From assembly GCA_902385225.1 (NCBI GenBank), contig CABMEU010000016.1, positions 1 through 55,574 of the forward strand: DNA of 55,574 nt, written 5' to 3'. Made by a program: the position numbers and the translations under genes. The notes beneath the pieces are model-generated. The model was not told where the DNA came from, did no database searches, and saw nothing but the letters and a program-made list of their open reading frames with translations. The stretch comes from an uncultured archaeon. Its GTDB lineage: Archaea > Iainarchaeota > Iainarchaeia > Iainarchaeales > JAAZKV01. Positions within the stretch are counted from its first letter, which is position 1. Each line of letters opens with the position of its first letter. Below are positions 36,394 through 52,034 of this stretch, piece by piece.

Positions 36394-36464
36394 TGGGGGT
36401 ACAGGGAATCGAACCCTGATTTAAAGGTCTGGAGCCTTTTGTATTACCACTATACTATACCCCC
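36394..36464 (-). tRNA. trnW: tRNA-Trp(CCA), intronless
   Basis: Cloverleaf: GGGGGTA/TACCCCC acceptor, GTAT/ATAC D stem, AAAGG-CTCCAGA-CCTTT anticodon arm, CAGGG-TTCGATT-CCCTG T arm, A73. Confidence 0.95.
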
Positions 36465-37722: not shown

Positions 37723-40059
37723 ATGAAGCAAGCCAAAGAGAAAAGCGCAAAAATTGAGGCAAAACCTGTTGCTGAGAAAGAACCAAAGGATAAGGTTCAC
37801 TGGGCTGATGAGATTGCAATGCAAGTGGTTAAGGCAAAACCAAATCAGGATTCTTTTACTGTTGCCTCAGGAATTACTCCTTCAGGGGTTGTGCATATCG
37901 GGAATTTTAGGGAAATAATTACTGTTGATTTAGTTGCTAAGGCATTACGAAAACTCGGGAAAAAAGTTAGGTTCATTTACTCCTGGGATGATTATGATGT
38001 TTTTAGAAAAGTTCCAGTGAATATGCCAAAGCAGGAAATGCTCACAAAGCACTTGCGCTATCCAATAGTTGATGTGCCTGACCCGTTTGGAAAAGAAAAG
38101 AGTTATGCTCGGCACTTTGAAGTAGAAGTTGAGAGGCGCCTCCCGGATGTTGGAATTAATGTTGAGTTCATTTACCAGGCTGACAGATACAAAAAATCTT
38201 TTTACGCTGAAGAAATAAAGTTCGCGATGATTAATAGAAAACGAATCGCAAAAATACTTGATTTGTATAGAGAAGAGCCTCTTGAAGAGAATTGGTATCC
38301 TTCCTCAATCTTTTGCGAGAAGTGCCGCTCAGATGAAACAGAAATTACTGGTTATGATGAGAAATATTTGGTTTCATATAAATGCGTTTGCGGGCATACA
38401 GATACTTTTGATATTAGAAAAAAAGGAATAATTAAACTCGTTTGGCGCGTTGATTGGCCGATGAGGTGGAATTTTGAGAAAGTTGATTTTGAGCCGAGTG
38501 GAAAAGACCATTCAAGCGAAGGCGGAAGCAATACAACAGCGGCACTAATAGTAAAAGAACTTTGGGGAAGAGAGGCGCCGATTCACTTGATGTATGAATT
38601 CATTGCGATTAAGGGGCAGGGCGGAAAAATGTCCTCCTCAAAAGGAAATACAGTTGATTTAAATGAAATGCTTGAAGTATATTCTCCAGAACTATTGAGA
38701 TACACTTTTGCCTCAAAGAAACCATCAAAATCCTTTGAAATTAGCTTTGAAGGGATGGATGTGATTAGAGCATATTCAGAATTCCAAAAAGTTGAGCGAA
38801 TGTACTTTGGAAAAGAACCAATTGACAAAGAAGATGTTGAGCTAAACAATAGAGTTTACGAACTTAGCTGTGTTAATATTCCAAAACAAATGCCCGAGCA
38901 AATTGATTTTAGGCACATGGTGACAGTTGCGCAAACATACCAATTTGATAAGAAGAAAATCGCGGAATTCTTTAACTCAAAAGACAAGAAGTACTGCGAC
39001 TTGATGGTTGATAGAGCAAAGGCGTGGATAACTGATTATGCGGAAGAGAGTTTCAAGTTCTCTGTTAATGAAGAAGCCAGCGATGAAGCAAAAACTTTGC
39101 TCTCTGAGAATCAGAAAAAAGCGATAAAACTTGTTTCTTCCCAGCTTGTTGGAAAGAAAGAGGATGAACTAATTGAATTGTTTGGTAAAGTTACGAAAGA
39201 AACCTCTCTTGACCAAAAAACTTTCTTTACCGCGTTTTACAGGGCGCTTATCAACAAAGACTTTGGACCAAAACTTACTCACTTCATGCTAGTAATTGGT
39301 TTGCCAAAAGTGAAAAAGATACTTGATTCGGTTGAGAAACCAGTTTCAAAGAAAGCTGTGTCAAATTCAAAAGAACTTGACTTGAATGGATTAAACTTTG
39401 AGATAAATAGTGAAATAACTTCAAAGTATCCTCAGTTTCGCTCAGGAATAGTTGTTCTTAATGGAGTGAATAACGTAAAAGAGAATAAGGAAATCACTGC
39501 ACTCCTCCGCTCTGCAGAAAATGATTTACGCGCAAGATTTGCGGGAGTAGAGCCAATTACAATTCCTCAACTAAAAGCATGGAGGGATGCTTATGCATTG
39601 TTCAACGGCGACCCTGCGAAGAACAAGCCCTCTGTGGATGCACTCGTTCGAAGAGTATTGAATAATAATTCGCTTCCAAACATTAATGCGCTAGTTGATT
39701 TGTATAATTATATCTCAATCAAACATCTTTTGCCTGCAGGCGGGGATGATTTGGATAAAGTTGAGGGAAAAGTAAGGCTTTGCATCGCTGATGGCACTGA
39801 AGACTTTTTTATGATTGGCGGAAAAATGAAGGAGCACCCAAACAGGGGCGAAGTAATTTACCGTGATGATAAAGATGTTCTTTGCAGGCGCTGGAACTGG
39901 AGAGAAGCGGACAAAACCAAGTTCACCGAAAGCACAAAGAATGCTGTTGTGTATATTGAAAGCATGCTAAAAGAAGATGATTTGGATGGCGCGCTAAAAG
40001 AATTCTGCACGCTTGCTGAGAAATATCTTAAAGCAAAAGCTGAATATCGCCTTTTGTAG
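37723..40059 (+). CDS. lysS: Class I lysyl-tRNA synthetase fused to C-terminal B3/4 domain
   Basis: HWAD, SGITPSGVVHIGN, WRVDWPMRW, KMSSSKG; from about 39391 WRDAY...PSVDALVRR, INALVDLYN.IS, GGDDLD, GEVIYRDD, CRRWNWRE. Confidence 0.95.
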   Translation: MKQAKEKSAKIEAKPVAEKEPKDKVHWADEIAMQVVKAKPNQDSFTVASGITPSGVVHIGNFREIITVDLVAKALRKLGKKVRFIYSWDDYDVFRKVPVNMPKQEMLTKHLRYPIVDVPDPFGKEKSYARHFEVEVERRLPDVGINVEFIYQADRYKKSFYAEEIKFAMINRKRIAKILDLYREEPLEENWYPSSIFCEKCRSDETEITGYDEKYLVSYKCVCGHTDTFDIRKKGIIKLVWRVDWPMRWNFEKVDFEPSGKDHSSEGGSNTTAALIVKELWGREAPIHLMYEFIAIKGQGGKMSSSKGNTVDLNEMLEVYSPELLRYTFASKKPSKSFEISFEGMDVIRAYSEFQKVERMYFGKEPIDKEDVELNNRVYELSCVNIPKQMPEQIDFRHMVTVAQTYQFDKKKIAEFFNSKDKKYCDLMVDRAKAWITDYAEESFKFSVNEEASDEAKTLLSENQKKAIKLVSSQLVGKKEDELIELFGKVTKETSLDQKTFFTAFYRALINKDFGPKLTHFMLVIGLPKVKKILDSVEKPVSKKAVSNSKELDLNGLNFEINSEITSKYPQFRSGIVVLNGVNNVKENKEITALLRSAENDLRARFAGVEPITIPQLKAWRDAYALFNGDPAKNKPSVDALVRRVLNNNSLPNINALVDLYNYISIKHLLPAGGDDLDKVEGKVRLCIADGTEDFFMIGGKMKEHPNRGEVIYRDDKDVLCRRWNWREADKTKFTESTKNAVVYIESMLKEDDLDGALKEFCTLAEKYLKAKAEYRLL

Positions 40060-40119
40060 TAACTTTTTCACGTAAGGCAAATTTATATACCTCTTAAATG
40101 TTCTATATTGCAGATTCGC

Positions 40120-40872
40120 ATGGCTATTGAGGAAGTTCTAAGAACAAAGACGGGTATACAGGGTTTGGATAAGGCGCTAAATGGCGGTTTTCCGCAAGGA
40201 AATATTGTTCTTGTTTCAGGCGGAGCAGGAACAGGAAAATCAACTTTTTGCTTACAATTCTTAGTTAATGGAGCTACTTTGTTTGGGGAAAAAGGACTCT
40301 ATGTCTCAACTGAACAGAATAGGGCAGAATTAGCCAAGCAAGCCGCTGGGTTTGACTGGAAATTAGCTGACCTTGAGCAAAGAGGACTAATAAAAGTTGT
40401 TTATTTTGATATTACTGGTCCTGATGGATTCTCTGACCAGCTAAACAAGCTAATAACAGAATTCAAGCCAAAGAGACTCATAATAGATTCACTAACAACA
40501 CTCACTGATTCATTAATCGTTTCAGGCATGGGCGAAGACAAAGCATTCTCCTTAGTTCAAATAGCTGAAACAGTTAACCCCATACCAAGAACAGAACAAA
40601 TCATCACCAAGAATATTTTGTACAGCTTGTTTAGAGAAATAAAGAAATCCGGAATAACCACACTCCTCACAACCGAACTACCCGAAGACCAAAGAACCCT
40701 AAGCGCAGACGGAGTAAGCGAATTCATTGCGGACGGGGTACTGTTACTTAATGCGGTTCCAGTTGGGGATACTTTGAATAGATCAATTCTTGTAAGAAAA
40801 ATGAGATACACAAAGATTGATGCCGGAATGAAATCTTATGATATAATTGAGTCTGGAATTTCTATTGAGTAG
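40120..40872 (+). CDS. KaiC/RAD55-like RecA-superfamily ATPase (single domain)
   Basis: TGIQGLD, GGAGTGKS, STEQ, IIDS, EFIADGV, KMRYT. Confidence 0.92.
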   Translation: MAIEEVLRTKTGIQGLDKALNGGFPQGNIVLVSGGAGTGKSTFCLQFLVNGATLFGEKGLYVSTEQNRAELAKQAAGFDWKLADLEQRGLIKVVYFDITGPDGFSDQLNKLITEFKPKRLIIDSLTTLTDSLIVSGMGEDKAFSLVQIAETVNPIPRTEQIITKNILYSLFREIKKSGITTLLTTELPEDQRTLSADGVSEFIADGVLLLNAVPVGDTLNRSILVRKMRYTKIDAGMKSYDIIESGISIE

Positions 40873-40878
40873 GTTTAA

Positions 40879-42015
40879 ATGGCATCAGTAAAAGATACAG
40901 TAACTTCTGTATTCATAAAAAATTTTATTATTCCAAAGGCGCAAGTTCTTGACCAGCCTGGCTTTATTATATTTAAGATGGGCGGGAAATCAAAGGTTTA
41001 TTCAAGACAGATTATATTTCCAGAAAGTTTTTTGGTTGATCTTGAAACACAACTTGTTGAGAAATATGGTGATTCAGGTAGAGAAGCACTATATTTAGCT
41101 GGAAAAAAATTTGGTTACTTGTTTGCCAGTATGGGTAATTTTTTCTCAGCAAAGAACTTTCAAGATAATAAAAAGTTAGTTGAGTATGTTGGGCTCTTAA
41201 ACAATTTTATTGAAGGAACATATGCAAAAAAGATGACTTTTGAAGCCGATTTGAATATCCCGAAGGTGGATTTCTTCTTAGACAATTTTATTAGTTGTAA
41301 TAAATCTGGACTCGGGTATTTTCTTCCAACTGGTGCGGCAGCTGGACTTTTATGTTATCTTCTTGAACGTGATGATATTGAAGGAGTTCAAACTGATTGT
41401 CAAGGTAATGGTAGCTCAGTTTGCAAAGTTGTTTATTCAATTCCAAGTTATTTCAGCGAGAAGAACATAAAGTTTATTCAAAAGAATCCATTTGAAAAGG
41501 TTTTAGTTGGGGCAGAGTATGCAAATTGGAATAAAACACAGCCAACCAAATATTCACAAGATAGCTTTCAAAAGCTCTTAAATTCAAAGTTCTTCTCTTA
41601 TAGCCAAGGAATAATCGAGAAAGACTCAAAAAGGTATTTTATATTTGAAGCAAGCGGGCCATACATTATTGAGAATGAATTGAGTGGAATTAAAGGCTTC
41701 ACAGAAATTTTGTTGAATGCCAGTGTAAAAGAAGGGGAGAACTTATTCTTTATTGGGGCAAAGAATATTAAAGGACTTTCAGACTTATTAACAGCTTTTG
41801 GTTGGGGGGATGTTTTTATATTAAAAAAGGCGGATAAATACTTAGTAAATATTGATTATTATCCATGGACTTTGCTTTATGAAAGATCAGATTTTATTAT
41901 AATCCAAGGAATTTTACAAGGCGCATTATCAAAAATAGATAACAGACCAGTATCTTTTTCTTCTAAAAAAAAGAACTTTAATAGTGGTGGGTTGTCAGTA
42001 TCATTTTTTGAATGA
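40879..42015 (+). CDS. Tandem V4R-like domain protein
   Basis: LYLAGKKFG...GAAAGLL...QTDCQGNGSSVCKVV; second repeat with FGWG...ILQGALS. Confidence 0.75.
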   Translation: MASVKDTVTSVFIKNFIIPKAQVLDQPGFIIFKMGGKSKVYSRQIIFPESFLVDLETQLVEKYGDSGREALYLAGKKFGYLFASMGNFFSAKNFQDNKKLVEYVGLLNNFIEGTYAKKMTFEADLNIPKVDFFLDNFISCNKSGLGYFLPTGAAAGLLCYLLERDDIEGVQTDCQGNGSSVCKVVYSIPSYFSEKNIKFIQKNPFEKVLVGAEYANWNKTQPTKYSQDSFQKLLNSKFFSYSQGIIEKDSKRYFIFEASGPYIIENELSGIKGFTEILLNASVKEGENLFFIGAKNIKGLSDLLTAFGWGDVFILKKADKYLVNIDYYPWTLLYERSDFIIIQGILQGALSKIDNRPVSFSSKKKNFNSGGLSVSFFE

Positions 42016-43920
42016 AGTGTCTTTCTTTGAGATTGTTATTAATCCATCAAAGGAAGTTTTTACATTCCCAAATACTGATTCTAATTCACTTAAATACTTG
42101 TCAAGGAATGGAAATTCTTGTTGGGATGGGACATTGTGCATAACCCACATTGGGGTACGAACTTGTTTTGCCTTGTGTGTCAGTTGATAAATAACACAAA
42201 AGCCACCATCTTCAAGAGCGGCATAAATCCTTTTATAAAACAAGGTTCTCTTTTTTACTGGTATGTGATTAATAACAAATGATAAAAAGATTATTTTATA
42301 TTTCTCATTTAGTGGTTTATCTAATATATTGTGTGTAAATAATTTTGCTCTTTTTAAATTCTCAAGCTTTAATGTATTTCCCTCTTTTTGTAATCTAATA
42401 TCTATCTTGTCTTTTGCTATCCTAATGGATTTTGAGCTTGGGTCAGTTCCAGATAAATTAACTTGAATTGGCATCTCATCTAAAATATTCATCAAGGATG
42501 TTCCAGTCCCACAACCTAAATCAAGTATTTTATCATTTTTATTTATTAGCTTTGTAAAAGATTTAATTGCGAGCTTCCTAAATGAGTATGGTGCTTCTGA
42601 CATTAACTTATCCCAAAGGATGGCACTTTGCTCTTCATCAAAACTCGAATTAAAAGATGTTTTCCCGGTTAATAGGGTATTTTTGGCTTTTGGAACCATT
42701 GAGAACGTCCATTTATGTGATGCCGGATAATGTTTCTTCATATAATTAAGCTCAGCTTCAGCTAATGTGTGTGGTATTTTTATTAAATAATACTTCTCTT
42801 CTCTATGCGCTAATACTTTCTCCCCAGTAAGCAAATCTAATAAATACTCTAATAGGTTCAAATTCTTAATTTTTAATCTTGAGGACAACTCATTAAGATC
42901 GGTACCTTTTTCTAAATAAGGTCTGCCGCCAATGGAATCTAATGTTTCCCAGGCAAACCAATTATATCCTTTTTTTGCAATTGTTAATGCTTTTACATCC
43001 ATTCGAAATCTTTTGTTGAATCCAAGATTAATAATTAGGTTTAATATGTCGTGGATTTTATTGGATTTAATTGCAGATTTAGTATTACTCTTCTCTGTTA
43101 TGTCTCGTGGGGTATATTCATAAGTGTTATTTAAAAGGACAACAAAAAAACCAGCGTTCGTGAGTAAGGTGTTATTTATTAAAAAAACGCTTATAATGTT
43201 CAAAACGAAAAATCCAGTGGCTTGAACATAGATTTTATGTAAAAGGTAATCATTTTTCATGGTGAATAATAGCACAACAACTATAAAAATTGGGATTAAA
43301 ATATCGAATCTAATTATTAGTATTGGGGCGATGGCTAAAAACATAATAACTATTTTTGTAAAATCTACTCCTACTCTTTTTGGCAGTGTGTATTTGTCTT
43401 TTTCTATATCTCTCAAATCCCCCAAAAGATTTCTGGAACAGGTAATAAGGAATATTGAAAGCAAAATTATCCAATAAGTTTCAAAAATTTTCAGGATGGG
43501 TAAATAGAAACTTAATATAGTAACTAAAATTAATACTTCTAAGAAGCCCCTAAAGATAAAACTTATTGGGGCTAGCAGCCAATTCTTGTTTTTCAGAGAA
43601 TAACATACAAAAGTTATTAATGCAATGAACAAAAATATTAGTGCTTCTGTGTGTATTAGTCCAATGCAAAATACAAGTATAATTCCGAGTGTGATGGGGA
43701 TTATTTTGTTTGTGTGTTCTCGATGATCCGTACTCGAATGCATAACTTCTTTTCCAAGGATTATTGTTGTCCAAAACAGGATTCCAATAGCCACGTCACG
43801 AAGAATATTTACATCAAACTCAGTTAAGAAAAGTATTGTTGGGATTAGTGATATTAAAATGATGTTAATAACGGTGTACAAGCGAATTAGTAGAAAATAC
43901 TTCTTTAGTGCTGAAAGCAT
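42001..43920 (-). CDS. UbiA-family prenyltransferase fused to class I SAM methyltransferase
   Basis: N-terminal multi-TM domain with LLIRLY and RNLLGDLRDIEKDKYTLP; C-terminal ILDLGCGTG, SFVINHI. Confidence 0.8.
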   Translation of the reverse strand: MLSALKKYFLLIRLYTVINIILISLIPTILFLTEFDVNILRDVAIGILFWTTIILGKEVMHSSTDHREHTNKIIPITLGIILVFCIGLIHTEALIFLFIALITFVCYSLKNKNWLLAPISFIFRGFLEVLILVTILSFYLPILKIFETYWIILLSIFLITCSRNLLGDLRDIEKDKYTLPKRVGVDFTKIVIMFLAIAPILIIRFDILIPIFIVVVLLFTMKNDYLLHKIYVQATGFFVLNIISVFLINNTLLTNAGFFVVLLNNTYEYTPRDITEKSNTKSAIKSNKIHDILNLIINLGFNKRFRMDVKALTIAKKGYNWFAWETLDSIGGRPYLEKGTDLNELSSRLKIKNLNLLEYLLDLLTGEKVLAHREEKYYLIKIPHTLAEAELNYMKKHYPASHKWTFSMVPKAKNTLLTGKTSFNSSFDEEQSAILWDKLMSEAPYSFRKLAIKSFTKLINKNDKILDLGCGTGTSLMNILDEMPIQVNLSGTDPSSKSIRIAKDKIDIRLQKEGNTLKLENLKRAKLFTHNILDKPLNEKYKIIFLSFVINHIPVKKRTLFYKRIYAALEDGGFCVIYQLTHKAKQVRTPMWVMHNVPSQQEFPFLDKYLSELESVFGNVKTSFDGLITISKKDTSFKK

Positions 43921-43957
43921 TAAGATTAAATAGCTGTTAGGGTATAAAAGTTTTTAG

Positions 43958-45037
43958 ATGGGTCAAATTACGATTGTTGGTGCGAGTTTATCGGGTCTTT
44001 CTGCAGCATCTTGGCTCTCAAATAATGGGTTTAGGGTTAAAGTTTTTGAACGAGGTTCAGGGATTGGTCATTTTCGTGGGCAAGATTTTCAGGTTATTCG
44101 AAATTATGGTGCTGATAAAGGCTTCTGTGATTCATTAAAAGATTACAAAATTGATATAAAACATAAACAACCAATAAATAAAATAATTAAATATGCCCCA
44201 TCTGGACGAACAATGGAAGTTGTTGCAAATGGGAACCCATTATTCTTTGTGATTAAACGCGGGAAATCACCGCTTTCGCTAGATTCACAAATTTTTAATT
44301 CAATTAACAAGAACAATCTTGATCTTGAGTTAAATAAAACGGTTAATGTTTTGTCTGGGGATATAGTTGCCACGGGACCAGTTTTGAGGAATGTTTTTGG
44401 GGTAGGGTATGTTTTTGAAGGGGTTGATGTAAATCCAGAGGAGATTCATCTCTTCATGGACAATAAATATGCGCCTAATGGTTATATTTATGTAGCCCCT
44501 TTTGGAAAGGATACGCTTTGTATTGCAGCCGTATCATTTGATGCTACTTTTGAATTGAAAATGTTGTTAGACCGATTTCTAGAAAAAAACGAAGTTGTTC
44601 AAGAATTAATAACTAACTATTCAAAAAAAGAAACTTTTAGCGGATATGGTTATTGTAATTATCCTGAAACAGCCGAGATTGATGGGAAATTATTTGTTGG
44701 TGCTGCGGCAGGGTTTGTTGAAGCGGCCAGAGGGTTTGGTGTTAAATATGCTATCTTATCAGGGCTGCTTGCTGCAGAGTCAATTCTAACTGGTAAAAGT
44801 TATGATTCTTTATGGAAAGGATCATTTGGCAATGAGCTAAAAGATAGTTTGTATCGCCATTTTTTGCTTTCTGAACTTACTGACTCTCAATATGAGCGTT
44901 TATTGTCTGAAGAAAAAGTTTCGGTCAAAGAATACAAAAAAATTCCTTCTGGGTTAGCTGATCTTTATAAATCAATTCGATTTTCGCAGGAGCTTAAAAA
45001 CTGGCAAAACCAATATTCCTTACACAAATTGTTTTAA
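43958..45037 (+). CDS. NAD(P)/FAD-dependent oxidoreductase (geranylgeranyl reductase-like)
   Basis: IVGASLSGLSAA, VFER, ATG, APNGYIY, VGAAAGFVEAARGFGVKYAILSG. Confidence 0.82.
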   Translation: MGQITIVGASLSGLSAASWLSNNGFRVKVFERGSGIGHFRGQDFQVIRNYGADKGFCDSLKDYKIDIKHKQPINKIIKYAPSGRTMEVVANGNPLFFVIKRGKSPLSLDSQIFNSINKNNLDLELNKTVNVLSGDIVATGPVLRNVFGVGYVFEGVDVNPEEIHLFMDNKYAPNGYIYVAPFGKDTLCIAAVSFDATFELKMLLDRFLEKNEVVQELITNYSKKETFSGYGYCNYPETAEIDGKLFVGAAAGFVEAARGFGVKYAILSGLLAAESILTGKSYDSLWKGSFGNELKDSLYRHFLLSELTDSQYERLLSEEKVSVKEYKKIPSGLADLYKSIRFSQELKNWQNQYSLHKLF

Positions 45038-45079
45038 GGAATAAATTGTTTTTTTAACCATTTGTCTGCTTATCTTAAC

Positions 45080-45898
45080 ATGGTTTTAGGGCTTGTTATT
45101 CCAAATAACACAAATTCTTCCTCAAAGGATTTGGTAATAAATGTTTTGTCTGATGAGTGGCCTCTTAGTGCCAAAGAGATATTCGACCGGGTAAAAAGGC
45201 GTTCAACTGTTGTATTGTCGTATCAAGCAATACACAAAGTCATAAAATCTCTCGAAGCTAATAAAATATTGGTCAAAGATGGTCCTAAATATTTGATTAA
45301 CATTGATTGGGCTGATAATATTTATGGGTTTGCTCAATCACTAAAGACTAATCTTTTGTCTAGAAAGCAAGTATTTCCTTTGACGAAGGAATTGATTTTT
45401 TCTTCTGTTTATGAAGTTGATCAGTTTTTGGTGGGTTTGGGTAAATCATTAAACGCAGGACCTTCAGACAATTTTGCTTTACATTGGCATCATTTGTGGA
45501 TACCACTGTTTTTCTCTAAGGATACATACAAAGAGATGAAGAATTTGATAATTGGGGCAAATTATTATTGTGTTTCTCCATCAGACACACCTATTGATAG
45601 ATGGTGCCTTGCTTTTTGGAAAAAACTGGGGGTTAATGAGAAGATTGGGGTTAAGTGGACTTATGGTATTGATATGTTAATTTTTAAGGATATAATTGTT
45701 CAGGTGTTTTATCCTCCGGAAATAAAAATGGAGATTGACAAAGTATATGCTTCTACTAATGATCCTTCAAAACTCAATATTGAGGAGTTCTTCAAGACTG
45801 TTTTTGAGAAAAAAACTAGAATTCCAGTGTTAATAACGCACAATGAAGCGGTTGCAAAAGAACTCTTTGAGCAAACGAAGTCCCTGTTCGGCAAATAA
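45080..45898 (+). CDS. Winged-helix regulator with C-terminal putative sensor domain
   Basis: LSDEWPLSAKEIF...SYQAIHKVIKSLEANKILVK...YLINIDW. Confidence 0.75.
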   Translation: MVLGLVIPNNTNSSSKDLVINVLSDEWPLSAKEIFDRVKRRSTVVLSYQAIHKVIKSLEANKILVKDGPKYLINIDWADNIYGFAQSLKTNLLSRKQVFPLTKELIFSSVYEVDQFLVGLGKSLNAGPSDNFALHWHHLWIPLFFSKDTYKEMKNLIIGANYYCVSPSDTPIDRWCLAFWKKLGVNEKIGVKWTYGIDMLIFKDIIVQVFYPPEIKMEIDKVYASTNDPSKLNIEEFFKTVFEKKTRIPVLITHNEAVAKELFEQTKSLFGK

Positions 45899-45950: not shown

Positions 45951-46637
45951 TCAATCTTTTAACTCAATTTTTATTGTTGTGAGTTTTGTTGTTGGTTTTC
46001 CGATGTTTAGTTGGATAATCATTTTGTTTAAGACTGCCATTTTGTCGTTAAGTTGTTTGCTTTCATAAAACCGATTTATTAAGGAATAAAGTTTTGGATC
46101 TAATTTAGCTATTTTTTTCACAAAATAATTCTCTTTAACTGGCAGGATTTTTTTTGAAAGGAAAAAAACGAACAGAATTTCTTTAAGTAGACAGTTCATT
46201 AAGAACAGTTTTTGTGTTTCATCTTCTCTTTCCTGTTCAATGTCTTGCAGCCTGTCGCCTATTTTGTATGCCCACCACTCAGCATCAAATTCTTCAAGCT
46301 TTTTATTAACAATTTCTTTTGCGGTTGGAATAAATTCGCTTAAGGAGTTATTCTTATCCAGAATTATTTTAGTATTCATAAACCACCCTGCCATATTGAA
46401 ATCTTTCTCGGTTTTTAGAATGTTCAGGGCATATTCTGATGGAAAGTAAAATAGTTCATGTTCTATTCCATTAATAACTTTTGATTCTCTTTTCCACCAG
46501 TTTTCATTAATTAATACAAAAACGTCTATGTCGTTGTGTTTTCCTTCAGGGTTGCGTGCATAAGAGCCAAAAATAAAAGCTCCTTCTGCATATTCTTTGT
46601 TTTTTAAGTATGTCAAAAGCCCTTTTTCTGAATTCAT
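45951..46637 (-). CDS. Nucleotidyltransferase domain protein with helical C-terminal domain
   Basis: FGSYAR...NDIDVFV...HELF. Confidence 0.85.
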   Translation of the reverse strand: MNSEKGLLTYLKNKEYAEGAFIFGSYARNPEGKHNDIDVFVLINENWWKRESKVINGIEHELFYFPSEYALNILKTEKDFNMAGWFMNTKIILDKNNSLSEFIPTAKEIVNKKLEEFDAEWWAYKIGDRLQDIEQEREDETQKLFLMNCLLKEILFVFFLSKKILPVKENYFVKKIAKLDPKLYSLINRFYESKQLNDKMAVLNKMIIQLNIGKPTTKLTTIKIELKD

Positions 46638-46741
46638 TTCAAGACCCTGCTTTGAGCTAATTGAGCCTAATCTCGTTATATTATTATCTTGAGGTTATCT
46701 GTTGAGATTAGTTCATAAATTTTTCGTAGTGTTATTTGGTC

Positions 46742-47212
46742 ATGAAATTGTCTGTTCTTTGTTATGTAACTAAAAATGGGAAGACATTGATGTTGCACCG
46801 TGTGAAGAAAGAAAGCGATTTAACTAATGGGCATTATGGTAAATGGAATGGCTTGGGCGGAAAAATTGAGCATAATGAGTCTCCTGAAGAGGCTGTAAAA
46901 AGAGAAGTTTTTGAGGAATCAGGGCTTACAATAAAGAAGCCTGTATTAAAAGGCATAATTACTTGCCCCGAAACAAGTACGGATGAAGAGTGGATAATTT
47001 TCATTTTTATTGCAAAGAAGTTTAAGGGTAACCTAATTGAATGCAATGAGGGTGATTTAGAGTGGGTTAAAACTTCTGAAATAAAAAAGCTGAATCTGTG
47101 GCAAGCTGACTATTTGCTTTTGCCACTGCTAAACAAAAAAGGAATATTCACAGCAAAAATTACTTATGATAATGGAAAAGTAATTCATTCAATTATAAAC
47201 AAATACAAGTAA
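46742..47212 (+). CDS. 8-oxo-dGTP diphosphatase-like NUDIX hydrolase
   Basis: GKWNGLGGKIEHNESPEEAVKREVFEESG, CNEGDLEW. Confidence 0.9.
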   Translation: MKLSVLCYVTKNGKTLMLHRVKKESDLTNGHYGKWNGLGGKIEHNESPEEAVKREVFEESGLTIKKPVLKGIITCPETSTDEEWIIFIFIAKKFKGNLIECNEGDLEWVKTSEIKKLNLWQADYLLLPLLNKKGIFTAKITYDNGKVIHSIINKYK

Positions 47213-47338
47213 CTACGCAGGCGCAAATTCATGTAGTGCTAAAGGTGTATACAAAACAAGAAAAGACAATCTCTTAGTCGCGTTTCGCAAAGCGGGCGGA
47301 GCAATAATTTTTATTAACAAAAAATATGGCTTTTGTGG

Positions 47339-48145
47339 TCAAACTTTTATTTCCATGCCGTCGTATGCAAAATCAAAGTTACTGTCGGCATATTTATTCT
47401 TCATCTTTCTTAAATAGTTTATGCCCCAATTCTGGAGTTCGAGTTCTTCGATGTGTGTGAGAATTGTTCTCTTTGGGTTTAGCTCTTTTATTCGGTTCAT
47501 TAAGCTGGGAAAAGATATTTCACTTTTCACTGTTTTGTATGAAAATAGGCCGCATTCATTAATTAGCAAATCCAAGTTTAGAATCTTTTGAGCGAAGCGT
47601 ATTGTATCACAGGGTGCATAGAGAACTCGCTTTTTCCCTTCTTTGAAAAGGAATGAGAAAGTGTTCGAGTTTTTGCCAGTATAACCTATTGCAATAATCT
47701 TTAATTTTCCTATTTTTACCATTTGATTATGCTCAATAAAATGAATCTTTGCTACTTTAATCACATTGGCATAATAATTTAGAACATTCATTTTATTTTC
47801 TAAATCTTTAAAAACTCTTTTTGAGAGGTAAACGTTAATTCTGCGCACAGCTTTATTCGTTCGAAAATCAAAGCATGATTCTAATACAAGTCTTAATCCA
47901 AAAGTGTGATCTGGGTGCCAGTGAGTTATAAATAAGTTCTCAACTTTTTTTATATTTCTTCTATTCAATGAATCAGCAATGTCTTCCCCGCAATCAATTA
48001 CTCCATTAATGTCTTTTATGAATAAAGAGCTGCTATTTCGTTTGTATGGCTCGCCTAGTTTTCTTGCTTTTTTGCAAACGTTGCACTGACAATAAGGTCT
48101 TGGAGTTGCTGTTGCACCCCCAGAACCAAGTATGACAAATTCCAT
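47339..48145 (-). CDS. MBL-fold metallo-hydrolase (PhnP-like)
   Basis: LGSGG, CQCNVC, THWHPDH, CD, LTH. Confidence 0.88.
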   Translation of the reverse strand: MEFVILGSGGATATPRPYCQCNVCKKARKLGEPYKRNSSSLFIKDINGVIDCGEDIADSLNRRNIKKVENLFITHWHPDHTFGLRLVLESCFDFRTNKAVRRINVYLSKRVFKDLENKMNVLNYYANVIKVAKIHFIEHNQMVKIGKLKIIAIGYTGKNSNTFSFLFKEGKKRVLYAPCDTIRFAQKILNLDLLINECGLFSYKTVKSEISFPSLMNRIKELNPKRTILTHIEELELQNWGINYLRKMKNKYADSNFDFAYDGMEIKV

Positions 48146-48180
48146 ACTATGCTAACCCAATTAAAATTTATAAAGACCAC

Positions 48181-48651
48181 TCACAATGTTTTCTTAAGTT
48201 CTTTTTTGAATTCTTTGAATCCAAGGCTTTCATAAAAAGCTAATGCGTTTTTATTACCCGATAACATGCTTAAGCAAATGTGTTTTATTTTTTTAGATTT
48301 AAATAATTTAATGGCCTCATTCATCAAGCTTTTTCCAACAGAGCGTTTTCTATATTTTTTAACAACAAATAAATCACTCACATAACCAATTTTTTTCACA
48401 GTATATATCTTCGGTCTATTCTTTATTTGGCAGTAAATGAATCCAGCGACTTTTTCATTTATCTCGGCAAGCAAAAGAAAACTATTAGATTTGCTATTAA
48501 TGCACTTTTTTGTGTATTTTCTAATTCCCGGGATACTTTCTCTGTCAAGGGTTTTGAACGCTGGGGCAATACTTTTTTCGTTTTTTATCAGATCAAGAAA
48601 TAAGTTTGTTAATACATTCAAATCTTTAATTTTAGCAGGCCTAATGTTCAT
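48181..48651 (-). CDS. GNAT N-acetyltransferase
   Basis: LFVVKKYRKRSVG, NALAFYESLGF. Confidence 0.9.
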   Translation of the reverse strand: MNIRPAKIKDLNVLTNLFLDLIKNEKSIAPAFKTLDRESIPGIRKYTKKCINSKSNSFLLLAEINEKVAGFIYCQIKNRPKIYTVKKIGYVSDLFVVKKYRKRSVGKSLMNEAIKLFKSKKIKHICLSMLSGNKNALAFYESLGFKEFKKELKKTL

Positions 48652-48792
48652 AATTAATATATGTAATTAAAATATATAAATGAACTTATTTCAAAGACTT
48701 TGGCTTCCGGTCACGCATAATTTGTTTGGGGTTTAAGCAAGTTTTTATTTTTAATATTTTTTTTATTTATTCAAGCAGTTAGTTCTACCTTC

Positions 48793-49269
48793 CTACAAGT
48801 ATCCCAAACTTTTTGCTTTATTTATTGCATTCTTGGTTTCTTTGAATGTTAATCTTTTTTCAATTGAGTTGAGCGGTAGGAAGGTTAGTTTGGATATCTC
48901 TTGTGTTTTTGGTTTTAACTTTGTTGGGTCTCCAAGGTATTCTGCTAAAAAGAGTGTTGTTATTTGCCCAGAATATTTACTGTTCTTTGTTTTTGGAAAA
49001 TCAAATGATATTTTTATTGGGAGTTCTGTCTTTATGCAAATTTCTTGTGTGCCAAGTTCTTCGCTTAATTCCCTTAATATTGCTTGAACTGGGGTCTCGT
49101 TTACTTTTATGCCCCCCTTTGGGATATCCCATTCATTTACTGGTTTCGCCCCGCCCAAATCCTCTGTTAAAACCTTATTAATTACGCAAATTTCATTCGG
49201 TTTTGATTTACAGGTGATAATTGCCCCTACTGCTTGCCTTATTGGCAAATCAATTATTTCTTTGTCCAT
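48793..49269 (-). CDS. NUDIX hydrolase (RppH/Ap4A-like)
   Basis: WDIPKGGIKVNETPVQAILRELSEELG, YSGQ. Confidence 0.85.
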   Translation of the reverse strand: MDKEIIDLPIRQAVGAIITCKSKPNEICVINKVLTEDLGGAKPVNEWDIPKGGIKVNETPVQAILRELSEELGTQEICIKTELPIKISFDFPKTKNSKYSGQITTLFLAEYLGDPTKLKPKTQEISKLTFLPLNSIEKRLTFKETKNAINKAKSLGYL

Positions 49270-49300: not shown

Positions 49301-49570
49301 TTATTTAACCCTTATCTTCTCCATCAACTCTTCCTTTTCTGTTGTTTTGACTAGCCACCCTTTTGTGGTTATTGTCCCTGTGGCTTCGAGTTCTTTTATT
49401 ATTTTGTCAAGTTTTTTCTCATTGTAGTTTGCAAAGCAGAGGAGTTCTTCTTTTGTGTAGTGTTTGTTTTCGTGCAGGAGTAGGAGGAGGATTTGCTCGT
49501 GTAATTGGGAGTAGTTTGGGTGTTCTTCAGCCTTTTTTAGGTATGCGTTTTCAAGTACGGTTAGCACCAT
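49301..49570 (-). CDS. Small winged-helix protein
   Basis: ILLLL...YTKEEL...LDKIIKELEATGTI; TAATG overlap with the upstream ORF. Confidence 0.55.
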   Translation of the reverse strand: MVLTVLENAYLKKAEEHPNYSQLHEQILLLLLHENKHYTKEELLCFANYNEKKLDKIIKELEATGTITTKGWLVKTTEKEELMEKIRVK

Positions 49571-50272: not shown

Positions 50273-50381
50273 AAATATTATTTGTTTTTGGTGTTATTAA
50301 TTCCAGCGGGTTTTGTGATGCCCAAGTCTTTTTTAAACCCTTTTTCTCTTGTCTTTCTTATCCAAGTCGGGGTTTATCTGT

Positions 50382-52034
50382 ATGGCAAAAAAGAGGGTTC
50401 TTGTTACTAGTGCGCTTCCGTACGTGAATAATGTTCCGCACCTTGGGAATCTTGTTGGTTCGGTGCTTGGCGCTGATGCGTTTGCTAGGTTTAAACGATT
50501 AGAAGGGAATGAGGTTTTGTTTGTTCTTGGCACTGATGAGCATGGTACAACAGCTGAAGCAAAAGCAATTGAAGAGGGTTTAACTCCTCGCCAATTAGTT
50601 GATAAATATTTTAAGATTCACAAAGAAATTTATGAGTGGTTTGGGGCTAGCGCTGACTGCATGGGCAGGAGTTCCTCAAAAGAGAATGCGGAAATTACTA
50701 AACACATTTTCCTAAAGCTCCACGAGAATGGTTTTTTGGTTGAGCGAACAATTACACAATTGTATTCAGAGAAAGCGAAGAAGTTTTTGAGTGATAGGTT
50801 TGTTGAAGGGGAGTGTCCGATTTGTCATGCGAAGGGCGCGAGGGGTGATCAGTGTGATGCTTGCGGTAATTTGCTTGACCCGATGGACCTCATTAATCCG
50901 ATTAGTAAACTTGATGGTTCAAAGCCAGTGCCAAAGCAAACCAAGCACTTGTTTATTGATTTGCCAAAAATTGAGCCTGAGTTAAAGAAATGGATTGATA
51001 CTAAGAGAAAAACTTGGACTCCATTAGCACTAAATATTACTGACCAGTGGCTCAAATCAGGGTTAAGAGAGAGATGCATTACGCGCGACCTTGAGTGGGG
51101 TATTCCTGTTCCCTTAAAGGGCTGGGAGAATAAAGTTATTTACAGCTGGTTTGATGCGCCAATCGCTTACATTGGAATTACCTCGGAGAAACTTGGTAAA
51201 AAATGGGAAGACTGGTGGAGAGCAGAAGATATTACTTTGTATCAGTTCATGGGAAAAGATAATGTTCCGTTCCACTCAATTTTGTTCCCTTCATTCTTAA
51301 TCGGCACAAGGGAAAAGTGGCACCTCGTTGATTATCTTGACTCAACTGCGTACCTAAATTATGAATCGCAGAAGTTCTCAAAGAGCAAAGGAGTTGGAGT
51401 ATTTGGGGATGATGCTATTAAGTCAGGTATCGCAAGTGACGTGTGGAGATATTATTTGTTTAGGGTTCGCCCGCAGGAATCCGATTCGGATTTTGAGTGG
51501 AAGGATTTTGAAGCGAAGGTTAACACCGAACTTGTTGGGAATTTTGGAAATTTTGTTAATAGAATTGTTGCGCTTAATGAGAAATTCTTTGATGGGGTAA
51601 AACAAAAATCCGGCAAAGGAAATCTATTGGATTCCGCAAAGCCCCTTGTTGAGGAATACAAAACCCTTGTAAACAAAATTCATTTGAGGGAAGCGCTTCT
51701 AAAAGCAAATGAAGTGAGCTCTCTTGGGAACAAATATTTGCAGGAGCACGAGCCGTGGATTAAAGTGAAAACAGATAAGGTCGCGGCAGGAGAGATAATT
51801 GCGGAGTGTCTTGATTTGGCGAAGGTCTTGGCTGTTCTTTATTATCCATTTACTCCAACAGCTTCAGGAAAAGTGTTTGAAATGCTCAATGAGAAAGATA
51901 TTTTGAAAGTTGGTTTCGCGAAGTGCTTTGACGGGGTAAAAGAGAAAACAAAGATTAAGTCACTCGGGATTTTGTTCGCAAAGCTTGATGATAAAGCGGT
52001 TGTTGAGCTAAAGAAGAAGTTCTCAAACCAATAA
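50382..52034 (+). CDS. metG: Methionyl-tRNA synthetase (no C-terminal OB domain)
   Basis: ALPYVNNVPHLGN, GTDEHG, CPIC/CDAC knuckle, KFSKS. Confidence 0.96.
   Translation: MAKKRVLVTSALPYVNNVPHLGNLVGSVLGADAFARFKRLEGNEVLFVLGTDEHGTTAEAKAIEEGLTPRQLVDKYFKIHKEIYEWFGASADCMGRSSSKENAEITKHIFLKLHENGFLVERTITQLYSEKAKKFLSDRFVEGECPICHAKGARGDQCDACGNLLDPMDLINPISKLDGSKPVPKQTKHLFIDLPKIEPELKKWIDTKRKTWTPLALNITDQWLKSGLRERCITRDLEWGIPVPLKGWENKVIYSWFDAPIAYIGITSEKLGKKWEDWWRAEDITLYQFMGKDNVPFHSILFPSFLIGTREKWHLVDYLDSTAYLNYESQKFSKSKGVGVFGDDAIKSGIASDVWRYYLFRVRPQESDSDFEWKDFEAKVNTELVGNFGNFVNRIVALNEKFFDGVKQKSGKGNLLDSAKPLVEEYKTLVNKIHLREALLKANEVSSLGNKYLQEHEPWIKVKTDKVAAGEIIAECLDLAKVLAVLYYPFTPTASGKVFEMLNEKDILKVGFAKCFDGVKEKTKIKSLGILFAKLDDKAVVELKKKFSNQ

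Follow-up and report, generated by a model that had tools for sequence, protein, structure and literature searches.

Introduction

V4R domains are regarded as binders of hydrophobic ligands that signal in cis or in trans (PMC2253512). In the phenol-responsive sigma-54 activators DmpR, MopR and PoxR, a V4R-fold sensor domain binds a hydrophobic ligand and gates a P-loop ATPase of the AAA+ type. Archaeal KaiC-like ATPases, in turn, have been proposed as signal-transduction hubs by Makarova, Galperin and Koonin (2017, mBio), as cited in PMC5847659. Here, we describe a locus that would unite two systems of known kinds, a signalling module built around KaiC and a cluster of accessory isoprenoid genes. 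It is located on contig CABMEU010000016.1 of an uncultured archaeon of the Iainarchaeota (GenBank assembly GCA_902385225.1), the 55,574 nucleotides of which we refer to as the window. Five genes make up its core (Table 1): those for a KaiC-like ATPase, a tandem V4R protein, a UbiA-like membrane domain fused to an S-adenosylmethionine (SAM) methyltransferase, a flavoprotein related to geranylgeranyl reductase (GGR), and a winged helix-turn-helix (wHTH)-like protein. Its distinctive features are the conserved pairing of KaiC with a tandem V4R protein, the exchange of an entire sensor-plus-enzyme cassette, and a UbiA-like/methyltransferase fusion with an altered first motif.

The locus of the window departs from the DmpR, MopR and PoxR activators in several respects. 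Its putative sensor is not joined to the ATPase and has a second V4R domain; a KaiC of the RecA type takes the place of the AAA+ protein; neither of the two carries a DNA-binding domain; the organism is an archaeon; and the adjacent genes presumably supply the ligand, instead of its being taken up from outside. With the hub proposal, as cited in PMC5847659, the locus shares a single-domain KaiC-family ATPase whose gene neighbours encode a wHTH-like protein and a putative sensor of small molecules; that cassettes are exchanged while KaiC stays in place is an element that comes from the comparisons reported here. The core enzymes of ether-lipid synthesis, geranylgeranylglyceryl phosphate (GGGP) synthase/PcrB, digeranylgeranylglyceryl phosphate (DGGGP) synthase/UbiA and GGR, belong to the same three superfamilies as the cassette enzymes. 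However, no cassette enzyme reaches an equivalog cut-off, and the genomes keep canonical copies elsewhere. In our limited literature collection we found no description of the KaiC-V4R-prenyltransferase association, and the survey of KaiC neighbourhoods by Makarova, Galperin and Koonin (2017) may list V4R neighbours.

We lean, with slightly better than even confidence, towards an accessory isoprenoid-tailoring cassette behind KaiC, whose product would be sensed by the V4R protein, which would modulate KaiC, and whose transcription would be regulated by the wHTH-like protein. The UbiA-like membrane domain would attach or rearrange a polyprenyl group, the fused methyltransferase would methylate the product of the membrane domain, and the flavoprotein may reduce the methylated product. 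The cassette-specific tandem V4R protein would bind the hydrophobic product or an intermediate and relay its occupancy to KaiC, a presumed generic P-loop engine whose gene, 6 bp upstream, would be co-transcribed with that for V4R; the short promoter region between the divergent genes is probably under the control of the wHTH-like protein. Both V4R proteins and the KaiC-like ATPases of archaea are widespread and almost uncharacterized, and the locus offers a concrete context for them, in which a family of tandem V4R proteins is paired with KaiC and linked to enzymes of prenyl transfer.

Homologues of the Locus Co-occur in Related Genomes

The tandem-V4R family comprises 318 representative clusters at E ≤ 1e-3 (among 1.84 billion representatives) and is present in 29 of the 215 genomes of the phylum. 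We surveyed 25 genome loci with a tandem-V4R gene, with the window left out of the count. A KaiC gene lies directly 5' of the V4R gene on the same strand in 20 of these loci; of the remaining five, two are truncated at the end of a contig, another two show a UbiA gene at the place of KaiC, and one is without KaiC. A prenyltransferase is encoded within two genes of the V4R gene in 19 of the 25 loci, a GGR-like flavoprotein within four genes in 10, and a wHTH-like paralogue within four genes in 11. The prenyltransferases are of three kinds, PcrB/GGGPS-like, canonical-looking UbiA, and UbiA-like plus methyltransferase. Two unrelated folds, PcrB/GGGPS-like (NF003198, E 1e-38 to 1e-42) or UbiA (PF01040, E 1e-21 to 1e-34), are found at the same position. 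Ten loci are of the PcrB type by Pfam, and a HAD-IB hydrolase is encoded in eight of them, the other two being cut by contig ends. A GGR-family flavoprotein accompanies the PcrB-like enzyme in four loci, plus L067 (PcrB-like by BLAST only), and the canonical-looking UbiA in another four. The GGR-family flavoproteins of these sister loci reach 140-155 bits with TIGR02032; like the sister-locus prenyltransferases, all of them stay below the equivalog cut-offs. The isoprenoid theme, which a first-pass annotation of the window had proposed from its sequence and open reading frames (ORFs), is reinforced by the recurrence of these enzymes at the same position.

The genes for KaiC, V4R, and the UbiA-like and methyltransferase proteins (fused or split) occur together in five genomes (G018, G027, G025, G030, and G054), in four of which the wHTH-like gene is also part of the locus; gene order and strands vary among them. 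A conserved-stretch search of the genome contigs with the alignment of six syntenic V4R proteins returned only the same five genomes. In a scan of metagenomes, 26 further loci with the UbiA-like domain were found. In eight of them, the UbiA-like gene has a methyltransferase gene as its immediate neighbour, the two never being fused, and the V4R gene adjoins this pair in six of the eight; one of the other two is on a contig too short to tell, and the other has KaiC directly 5' and is without V4R. Locus L093 appears to be G030 again. The full-length fusion was matched among 61 related genomes only in G018 (57% identity) and G027 (47%), and the fused form is rare: scoring of 8000 candidates yielded five further clusters at 90% identity. 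The adjacent separate halves in G025, G030 and the eight metagenome loci, in which the methyltransferase gene encodes about 340 amino acids, provide Rosetta-stone support for a functional unit. Since homologues co-occur in other genomes in this neighbourhood comparison, the earlier notion that the genes form a recurring functional unit is borne out.

Cassettes Are Exchanged behind a Conserved KaiC

The V4R tree groups by cargo and requires two cargo changes, which is the minimum, whereas the KaiC tree needs five. All 11 V4R rows of the PcrB type, drawn from seven GTDB families, form one clade (100 in the SH-like approximate likelihood ratio test, SH-aLRT), and the V4R protein of the window groups with those of G018 and G027. 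The KaiC tree, in contrast, follows taxonomy and unites all seven same-genus rows in one clade (SH-aLRT 95). Judged from this tree, KaiC can be regarded as the conserved, vertically inherited anchor of the locus. A topology in which the V4R proteins of the seven same-genus rows are constrained to be monophyletic is worse by 206 log-likelihood units and is rejected in the approximately unbiased test (p-AU 2e-74); this topology was chosen after the tree had been seen, and the group itself is defined by taxonomy.

Two loci of the same genus, L068 and L070, share both flanks with the window. Their KaiC proteins are 72-75% identical to that of the window, and the right flank, consisting of a gene for an 89-amino-acid protein, the methionyl-tRNA synthetase (MetRS) gene and the next gene, is common to all three loci (62-73%); the 89-amino-acid product itself is 62-66% identical beside the PcrB-type cassettes of L068 and L070. 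Between these flanks, L068 and L070 carry genes for a V4R protein (34% identity), a PcrB-like enzyme, a GGR-like protein and a HAD protein. Because the flanks are shared while the cassette between them differs, we conclude that the AT-rich stretch between 40879 and about 49300 is a cassette that has been replaced, whereas the KaiC gene in front of it was inherited vertically. The exchange of cassettes is seen as well in the trees, since the V4R phylogeny tracks cargo and the KaiC phylogeny tracks taxonomy. The V4R protein changes together with the enzyme cargo and the ATPase does not, which points to V4R as the carrier of specificity and to KaiC as the common engine.

Base composition supports the exchange through the fall in GC content at the KaiC/V4R boundary. 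The GC fraction is 0.306-0.354 in 1-kb windows between 41 and 49 kb, compared with 0.379-0.45 between 34 and 41 kb and 0.386-0.428 between 49 and 55 kb, and it amounts to 0.389 for the window as a whole. Gene by gene, it is 0.389 for the lysyl-tRNA synthetase (LysRS) gene preceding KaiC, 0.396 for KaiC, 0.324 for V4R, 0.311 for the fusion, 0.355 for the flavoprotein, 0.344 for the wHTH-like gene, and 0.295-0.352 for the five genes that follow. The first-pass annotation had placed five tightly packed genes in an AT-richer block. Tight packing of all five is evident from the ORF coordinates, as are the 6-bp gap between KaiC and V4R, the 15-bp convergent overlap of V4R and the fusion gene, and the 37-bp divergent gap between the fusion and flavoprotein genes; the flavoprotein and wHTH-like genes are spaced by 24 bp. 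The AT-richer block is likewise real, but KaiC lies outside it, because GC falls from the KaiC/V4R boundary onward, and the block extends beyond the wHTH-like gene to about 49.3 kb. The five genes do form a unit, but the exchangeable cassette is larger than they are, spanning 40.9-49.3 kb, with KaiC as its conserved anchor.

Transposase genes (DDE_Tnp_1; IS110 family) are situated a few genes from the module in L054 (8972-9958) and L091 (9360-10376). They could be vehicles of cassette movement.

The KaiC-Like ATPase and the Tandem V4R Protein

The KaiC-like protein consists of 254 amino acids that form one domain of the RecA superfamily, and its designation is confirmed by PF06745 (188 bits vs. 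a cut-off of 26.6, E 2.2e-55). Across 22 aligned KaiC homologues, the Walker A residues G38, G41, G43 and K44, as well as E69 and the Walker B residue D127, are invariant. We considered a circadian-clock KaiC, for which two tandem KaiC domains (about 500 amino acids) and the equivalog score served as the criterion; it was rejected since the protein has one domain and scores 98.5 bits against a cut-off of 546 with TIGR02655 and 134.7 against 408 with PRK09302.

The tandem V4R protein falls below the threshold of PF02830 (14.1 bits vs. a cut-off of 31, E 0.051); 22 of 65 sampled family members match this profile at E ≤ 0.01, with a best value of 3.2e-7. Direct sequence searches of the PDB with the V4R protein (P0001) and with the window protein P0004 gave no meaningful match. 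The AlphaFold2 model built from the family alignment (pLDDT 94.6, pTM 0.93) is more telling: its N-terminal half has its best structural matches among the ligand-sensing domains of PoxR, MopR and DmpR (Z 12.7-14.2; residues 13-204 with PoxR 5fru, Z 14.2, 175 aligned residues, 3.3 Å), and its C-terminal half, residues 234-378, matches MJ1460 (2osd, Z 10.5, 135 residues, 5.7 Å). Since both halves match solved V4R structures, the label tandem V4R is correct. G75xxxG79 and G152xxxG156, as in paired GxxxG helices, are invariant in the six syntenic V4R proteins, and C140 (57 of 65), E168 (56 of 65) and C182 (57 of 65) are conserved among the relatives.

Bet3/TRAPPC3 structures are matched by the fold as well (Z 9-11), and one of these entries contains palmitate in covalent linkage. 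Bet3/TRAPPC3 proteins, found in eukaryotes and Asgard archaea, have an alpha/beta fold with paired GxxxG helices (PMC2253512), and some members hold an acyl chain; unlike them, which are subunits of vesicle-tethering complexes, nothing at the window locus indicates vesicle traffic. This likeness is the starting point of the main rival to sensing, namely that the V4R protein is a carrier or chaperone for the hydrophobic polyprenyl substrate or product, which would be loaded, extracted or passed on to the cassette enzymes with ATP energy supplied by KaiC, with no signal involved. We consider such handling unlikely. The co-variation of V4R with the enzyme type is what one would expect of a substrate-specific carrier, and the presumably co-transcribed pair stands beside soluble (PcrB) or membrane-bound (UbiA) prenyltransferases with poorly soluble lipid substrates. 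Yet it is the sensor domains of transcription activators that the fold matches best, and the Cys, Glu and Cys positions resemble the metal site of MopR/PoxR-type sensors and may likewise bind a metal. Moreover, no membrane anchor is visible in the V4R or KaiC sequence, and archaeal KaiC-family proteins are discussed as signalling ATPases in PMC5847659.

A bolder form of handling, which we hold to be still more doubtful, makes the KaiC-tandem-V4R pair an ATP-driven lipid-handling device that retains the fold of a prokaryotic Bet3 ancestor and services a hypervariable lipid-tailoring island. If true, species within one DPANN genus would swap entire cassettes of V4R, prenyltransferase, tailoring enzyme and regulator behind a fixed KaiC. 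The lipids of their membranes or surfaces would thereby be diversified, for attaching to hosts or for evading viruses, in a lipid-based archaeal analogue of the O-antigen loci of bacteria.

Short single-domain V4R proteins (about 160-200 amino acids), a 410-amino-acid protein with a zinc ribbon and a V4R domain, and extra KaiC paralogues cluster around some loci (L071 64-1177 and 7216-7755; L058 6499-7101; L100 6324-6803; L091 7697-8929). Three KaiC genes are found in L071 and two in L060. This clustering suggests larger KaiC-V4R networks.

The Cassette Enzymes and the Isoprenoid Background of the Genome

At the superfamily level, the fusion protein is what it had been taken for, a divergent UbiA-like membrane domain joined to a small-molecule-type SAM methyltransferase. 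Hydrophobic windows extend across residues 7-263 of its N-terminal part, as in a polytopic membrane protein. PF01040 stays below its threshold for the fusion protein itself (P0002; 14.7 bits vs. a cut-off of 34.2, E 0.018), while 7 of 10 fusion relatives match it at E ≤ 0.1 (best 4.1e-13), and hhalign relates the UbiA-like domain to the locus-linked canonical UbiA with 79% probability (E 1.6e-5) over the region YS...DxxDxxxD...TxP. The second Asp motif is retained as G167-D168-x-R170-D171-xxx-D175 and aligns with DxxDxxGD...TxP of canonical UbiA; G167, D168, R170, D171 and T178 are invariant, and D175 is nearly so. In the C-terminal part, a helical, winged-helix-like extension precedes a clear class I SAM methyltransferase domain (PF08242, 45.6 bits vs. 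30, residues 466-574; PF13649, 40 vs. 27; PF13847), whose Pfam matches together span residues 457-583 and whose SAM loop LDLGCGTG is conserved. As a lead only, the Atlas model of residues ~290-639 resembles small-molecule methyltransferases with Methyltransf_2 and Dimerisation domains (TM 0.58-0.80, depending on the row). With its altered diphosphate-binding motif, the fusion is a candidate for new prenyl chemistry.

The flavoprotein is GGR-like at the level of the superfamily, as had been suggested: PDB entry 3oz2 is matched over residues 148-275 (E 9.2e-7). It misses the criterion of the GGR family TIGR02032 (59.1 bits vs. a cut-off of 158.8, E 5.7e-16, residues 155-276 only) and stays under that of GGR_cat (24.4 vs. 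27 bits). GASLSG stands for the GxGxxG motif, GAAAG for G(D/E)AAG, and YIYVAP for YxWxxP; in an alignment with the GGR proteins of the same genome, it has no Cys at the PRxKxCGG position and a deletion of about 30 residues. Only G018 (47%) and G027 (60%) yielded orthologues.

These proteins are encoded in a genome of 1.05 Mb (87% complete) that possesses a canonical set of isoprenoid-lipid genes elsewhere: a GGGP synthase (142 bits), two GGR proteins above the cut-off, a polyprenyl synthase, an HMG-CoA reductase, and three further UbiA genes above the Pfam cut-off (85-142 bits). The cassette enzymes are therefore extra, accessory paralogues, and five relatives with PcrB-type cassettes likewise retain a canonical GGGP synthase. 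An ordinary DGGGP synthase and a housekeeping lipid operon were both rejected in view of these canonical copies; in agreement with the rejection of the former, the UbiA-like domain has no NCBIfam prenyltransferase match at E ≤ 1. The first-pass annotation had called the archaeon biosynthetically reduced, which does not hold for isoprenoid lipids given the HMG-CoA reductase, polyprenyl synthase, GGGP synthase, UbiA and GGR genes. Accessory isoprenoid chemistry in a small-genome, DPANN-type archaeon, differing within a genus by cassette replacement, would bear on how such archaea build or modify their membranes.

The product need not be a glycerol-based lipid. It might be an aromatic compound that is prenylated and C-methylated and whose side chain is saturated in part, made in the style of MenA, UbiE/MenG and MenJ, although we rate this as distinctly unlikely. 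UbiE is the best NCBIfam match of the methyltransferase (E 1.2e-7), the GGR-like proteins of sister loci touch the MenJ model (E 1e-10 to 1e-14), and a variant cassette has a thiamine-diphosphate enzyme beside its UbiA-like gene; however, the UbiE and MenJ matches are all far below the family cut-offs. The commonest sister cassette, moreover, uses a PcrB/GGGPS-like enzyme, and this family acts on glycerol phosphate.

The wHTH-Like Protein and the Question of a Diffusible Signal

The wHTH-like protein combines a winged-helix-like N-terminus with a conserved C-terminal domain of about 190 amino acids that has conserved motifs of its own, and we view it as a putative ligand-responsive regulator. 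It has no Pfam or NCBIfam match, and most of its 31 homologues are unnamed or labelled hypothetical, four being labelled archaeal or as belonging to a DPANN lineage. Searching its profile against the PDB gave only Fur and AdcR, weakly (E ~0.1, profile positions 3-68). Its Atlas model is similar to TrmB-type regulators (TM 0.50-0.55, a lead only) and aligns with clusters carrying PF01978 and PF11495. Unlike these regulators, the protein has no match to their profiles at the sequence level, and the motifs of its C-terminal domain are its own.

In the first-pass annotation, the product was taken for a diffusible, quorum-like or host-directed signal with the V4R and wHTH-like proteins as its receptors. 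Synthesis and putative sensing genes do share one exchangeable cassette, and cassette types that differ between species of one genus would suit a signal that determines specificity. No further feature supports such a circuit: the Pfam scan of the island genes revealed no exporter, secretion or receptor-kinase gene, and the sensors are cytoplasmic while polyprenylated products are membrane-bound. We therefore judge a diffusible signal to be highly unlikely and keep to the accessory isoprenoid-tailoring cassette.

Observations That Weigh against a Sensed Isoprenoid Product

Several observations count against our preferred reading of an isoprenoid-tailoring cassette whose product is sensed by V4R. 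The first Asp motif of the UbiA-like domain is non-canonical, with H61xxxD65xxx[K/H]69 instead of the NxxxDxxxD of canonical UbiA, which is also visible in the canonical neighbour genes; E58 and R67 are invariant (the register was read from alignments). Given this motif, the domain could be catalytically altered or inactive. The same could be true of the flavoprotein, which lacks the acidic GD-motif residue, the conserved Cys and the YxWxxP tryptophan, and which occurs in just three loci (the window, G018 and G027), all with the fused form. The assignment of the wHTH-like protein comes from leads only, the PDB profile and the Atlas model. More generally, we infer ligand binding, contact between KaiC and V4R, catalysis and the chemical nature of the product, and the related genomes compared are not independent samples.

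Gene content also varies. Four of the 25 V4R loci (L059, L064, L065, and L072) have no prenyl enzyme nearby, and their V4R proteins form a separate clade. There is no V4R gene in L094, where the UbiA-like gene comes directly after KaiC. A FIST protein occupies the sensor position beside KaiC in L095 and L096. These two belong, with L098, to the variant cassette, which is composed of an unknown protein of about 125 amino acids, the FIST protein, the thiamine-diphosphate (TPP) enzyme and the UbiA-like gene; L095 and L098 have a GGR-like gene in addition, and wHTH-like genes are nearby in L095 and L096. In L098, the contig with the same FIST-TPP-UbiA-like set ends before any KaiC, and L099 has UbiA-like and TPP genes only. 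FIST seems to replace the tandem V4R protein in this variant cassette.

The Remaining Genes of the AT-Rich Segment and the Flanks

Between the wHTH-like gene and the right border, Pfam recognizes five genes (Table 1). For the stretch 45951-49269, no counterpart was found in the same-genus loci L068 and L070, where homology resumes at 49.3 kb. A pair of HEPN and nucleotidyltransferase genes is found at the matching place in G027, and Nudix genes recur beside the cassettes of G030, G015 and G005. One or another of the enzymes encoded in this stretch may act on the cassette product, e.g., a Nudix enzyme on a prenyl diphosphate.

We give very little credence to the AT-rich block being a defence or toxin-antitoxin island whose KaiC-V4R-enzyme neighbourhood would be unrelated to isoprenoids. 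The variability, AT-richness and exchangeability of the segment would fit such an island, as would its Pol-beta nucleotidyltransferase, its two Nudix genes, the HEPN pair of G027 and the domain-level matches of PADLOC, in which the methyltransferase domain is related to mad2 (3e-13) and Nudix to the candidate model PDC-S07 (3e-16). However, PADLOC detected generic domains only (mad2 for the methyltransferase, mad8 for the P-loop, candidate PDC models for Nudix and the nucleotidyltransferase), found no match for the V4R, flavoprotein or wHTH-like proteins, and matched no known system architecture, so that the locus does not qualify as a known anti-phage defence system. In addition, the recurring partners are three prenyl-related enzyme families.

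Table 1. Coordinates of the KaiC-V4R locus, its right-hand neighbourhood, and the variant cassettes of other loci.
Feature	Coordinates	Strand	Remarks
KaiC-like ATPase	40108-40872	+	likely start, ATG at 40120 (start used in the first-pass annotation)
Tandem V4R-like protein, 378 aa (amino acids)	40879-42015	+	
UbiA-like/methyltransferase fusion, 639 aa	42001-43920	-	
UbiA-like membrane domain of fusion, ~aa 1-285	43066-43920	-	
Extension and SAM methyltransferase of fusion, ~aa 286-639	42001-43065	-	
GGR-superfamily flavoprotein, 359 aa	43958-45037	+	
wHTH-like protein, 278 aa	45062-45898	+	alternative start, ATG at 45080
Pol-beta-type nucleotidyltransferase	45951-46637	-	Pfam
Nudix	46736-47212	+	Pfam
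Metallo-beta-lactamase-fold protein	47339-48145	-	Pfam
GNAT	48181-48651	-	Pfam
Second Nudix	48793-49269	-	Pfam
Conserved 89-aa gene	49301-49570	-	right border of exchangeable segment
MetRS	50349-52034		after 89-aa gene
Variant cassette, L095	8848-12183		
Variant cassette, L096	9734-13165		
Variant cassette, L098	2534-5858		
Variant cassette, L099	1230-2891		

Scans of 36-52 kb with Rfam and for tRNAs revealed no riboswitch or other RNA inside the module, the sole match being a tRNA-Trp at 36394-36464. Among sequencing runs, no RNA run was listed as containing the sampled sequence words, and eight DNA runs contain just 0.05-0.10 of them, from which we draw no conclusion. A TTTATATA box is located about 35 bp 5' of the KaiC ATG at 40120. 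The 37-bp divergent spacer (43921-43957) contains TATAAAA about 8 bp before the ATG of the flavoprotein gene. As this leaves scant room for two archaeal promoters, the true start codon or transcript start of one gene or of both may lie elsewhere than the called ORFs imply.

The class I LysRS gene on the left of KaiC (37723-40059, plus strand) encodes a protein of 778 amino acids with a C-terminal B3/4 domain (PF03483, E 9.4e-25, residues 619-745), which is familiar from the beta subunit of phenylalanyl-tRNA synthetase. This long form is also present in G017 (777 amino acids, 66% identity), and the G030 homologue has 533 amino acids. In four other loci, a gene pair for DUF7718 and an HVO_A0114/ArsR-like winged-helix protein is found directly 5' of KaiC, following an Asp/Asn-type tRNA synthetase (L017 5999-6702; L018 4474-5159; L068 10063-10771; L095 13030-13812), and in L019 (13411-13737) the DUF7718 gene is present alone, without its winged-helix partner. 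In the window, this place is occupied by LysRS.

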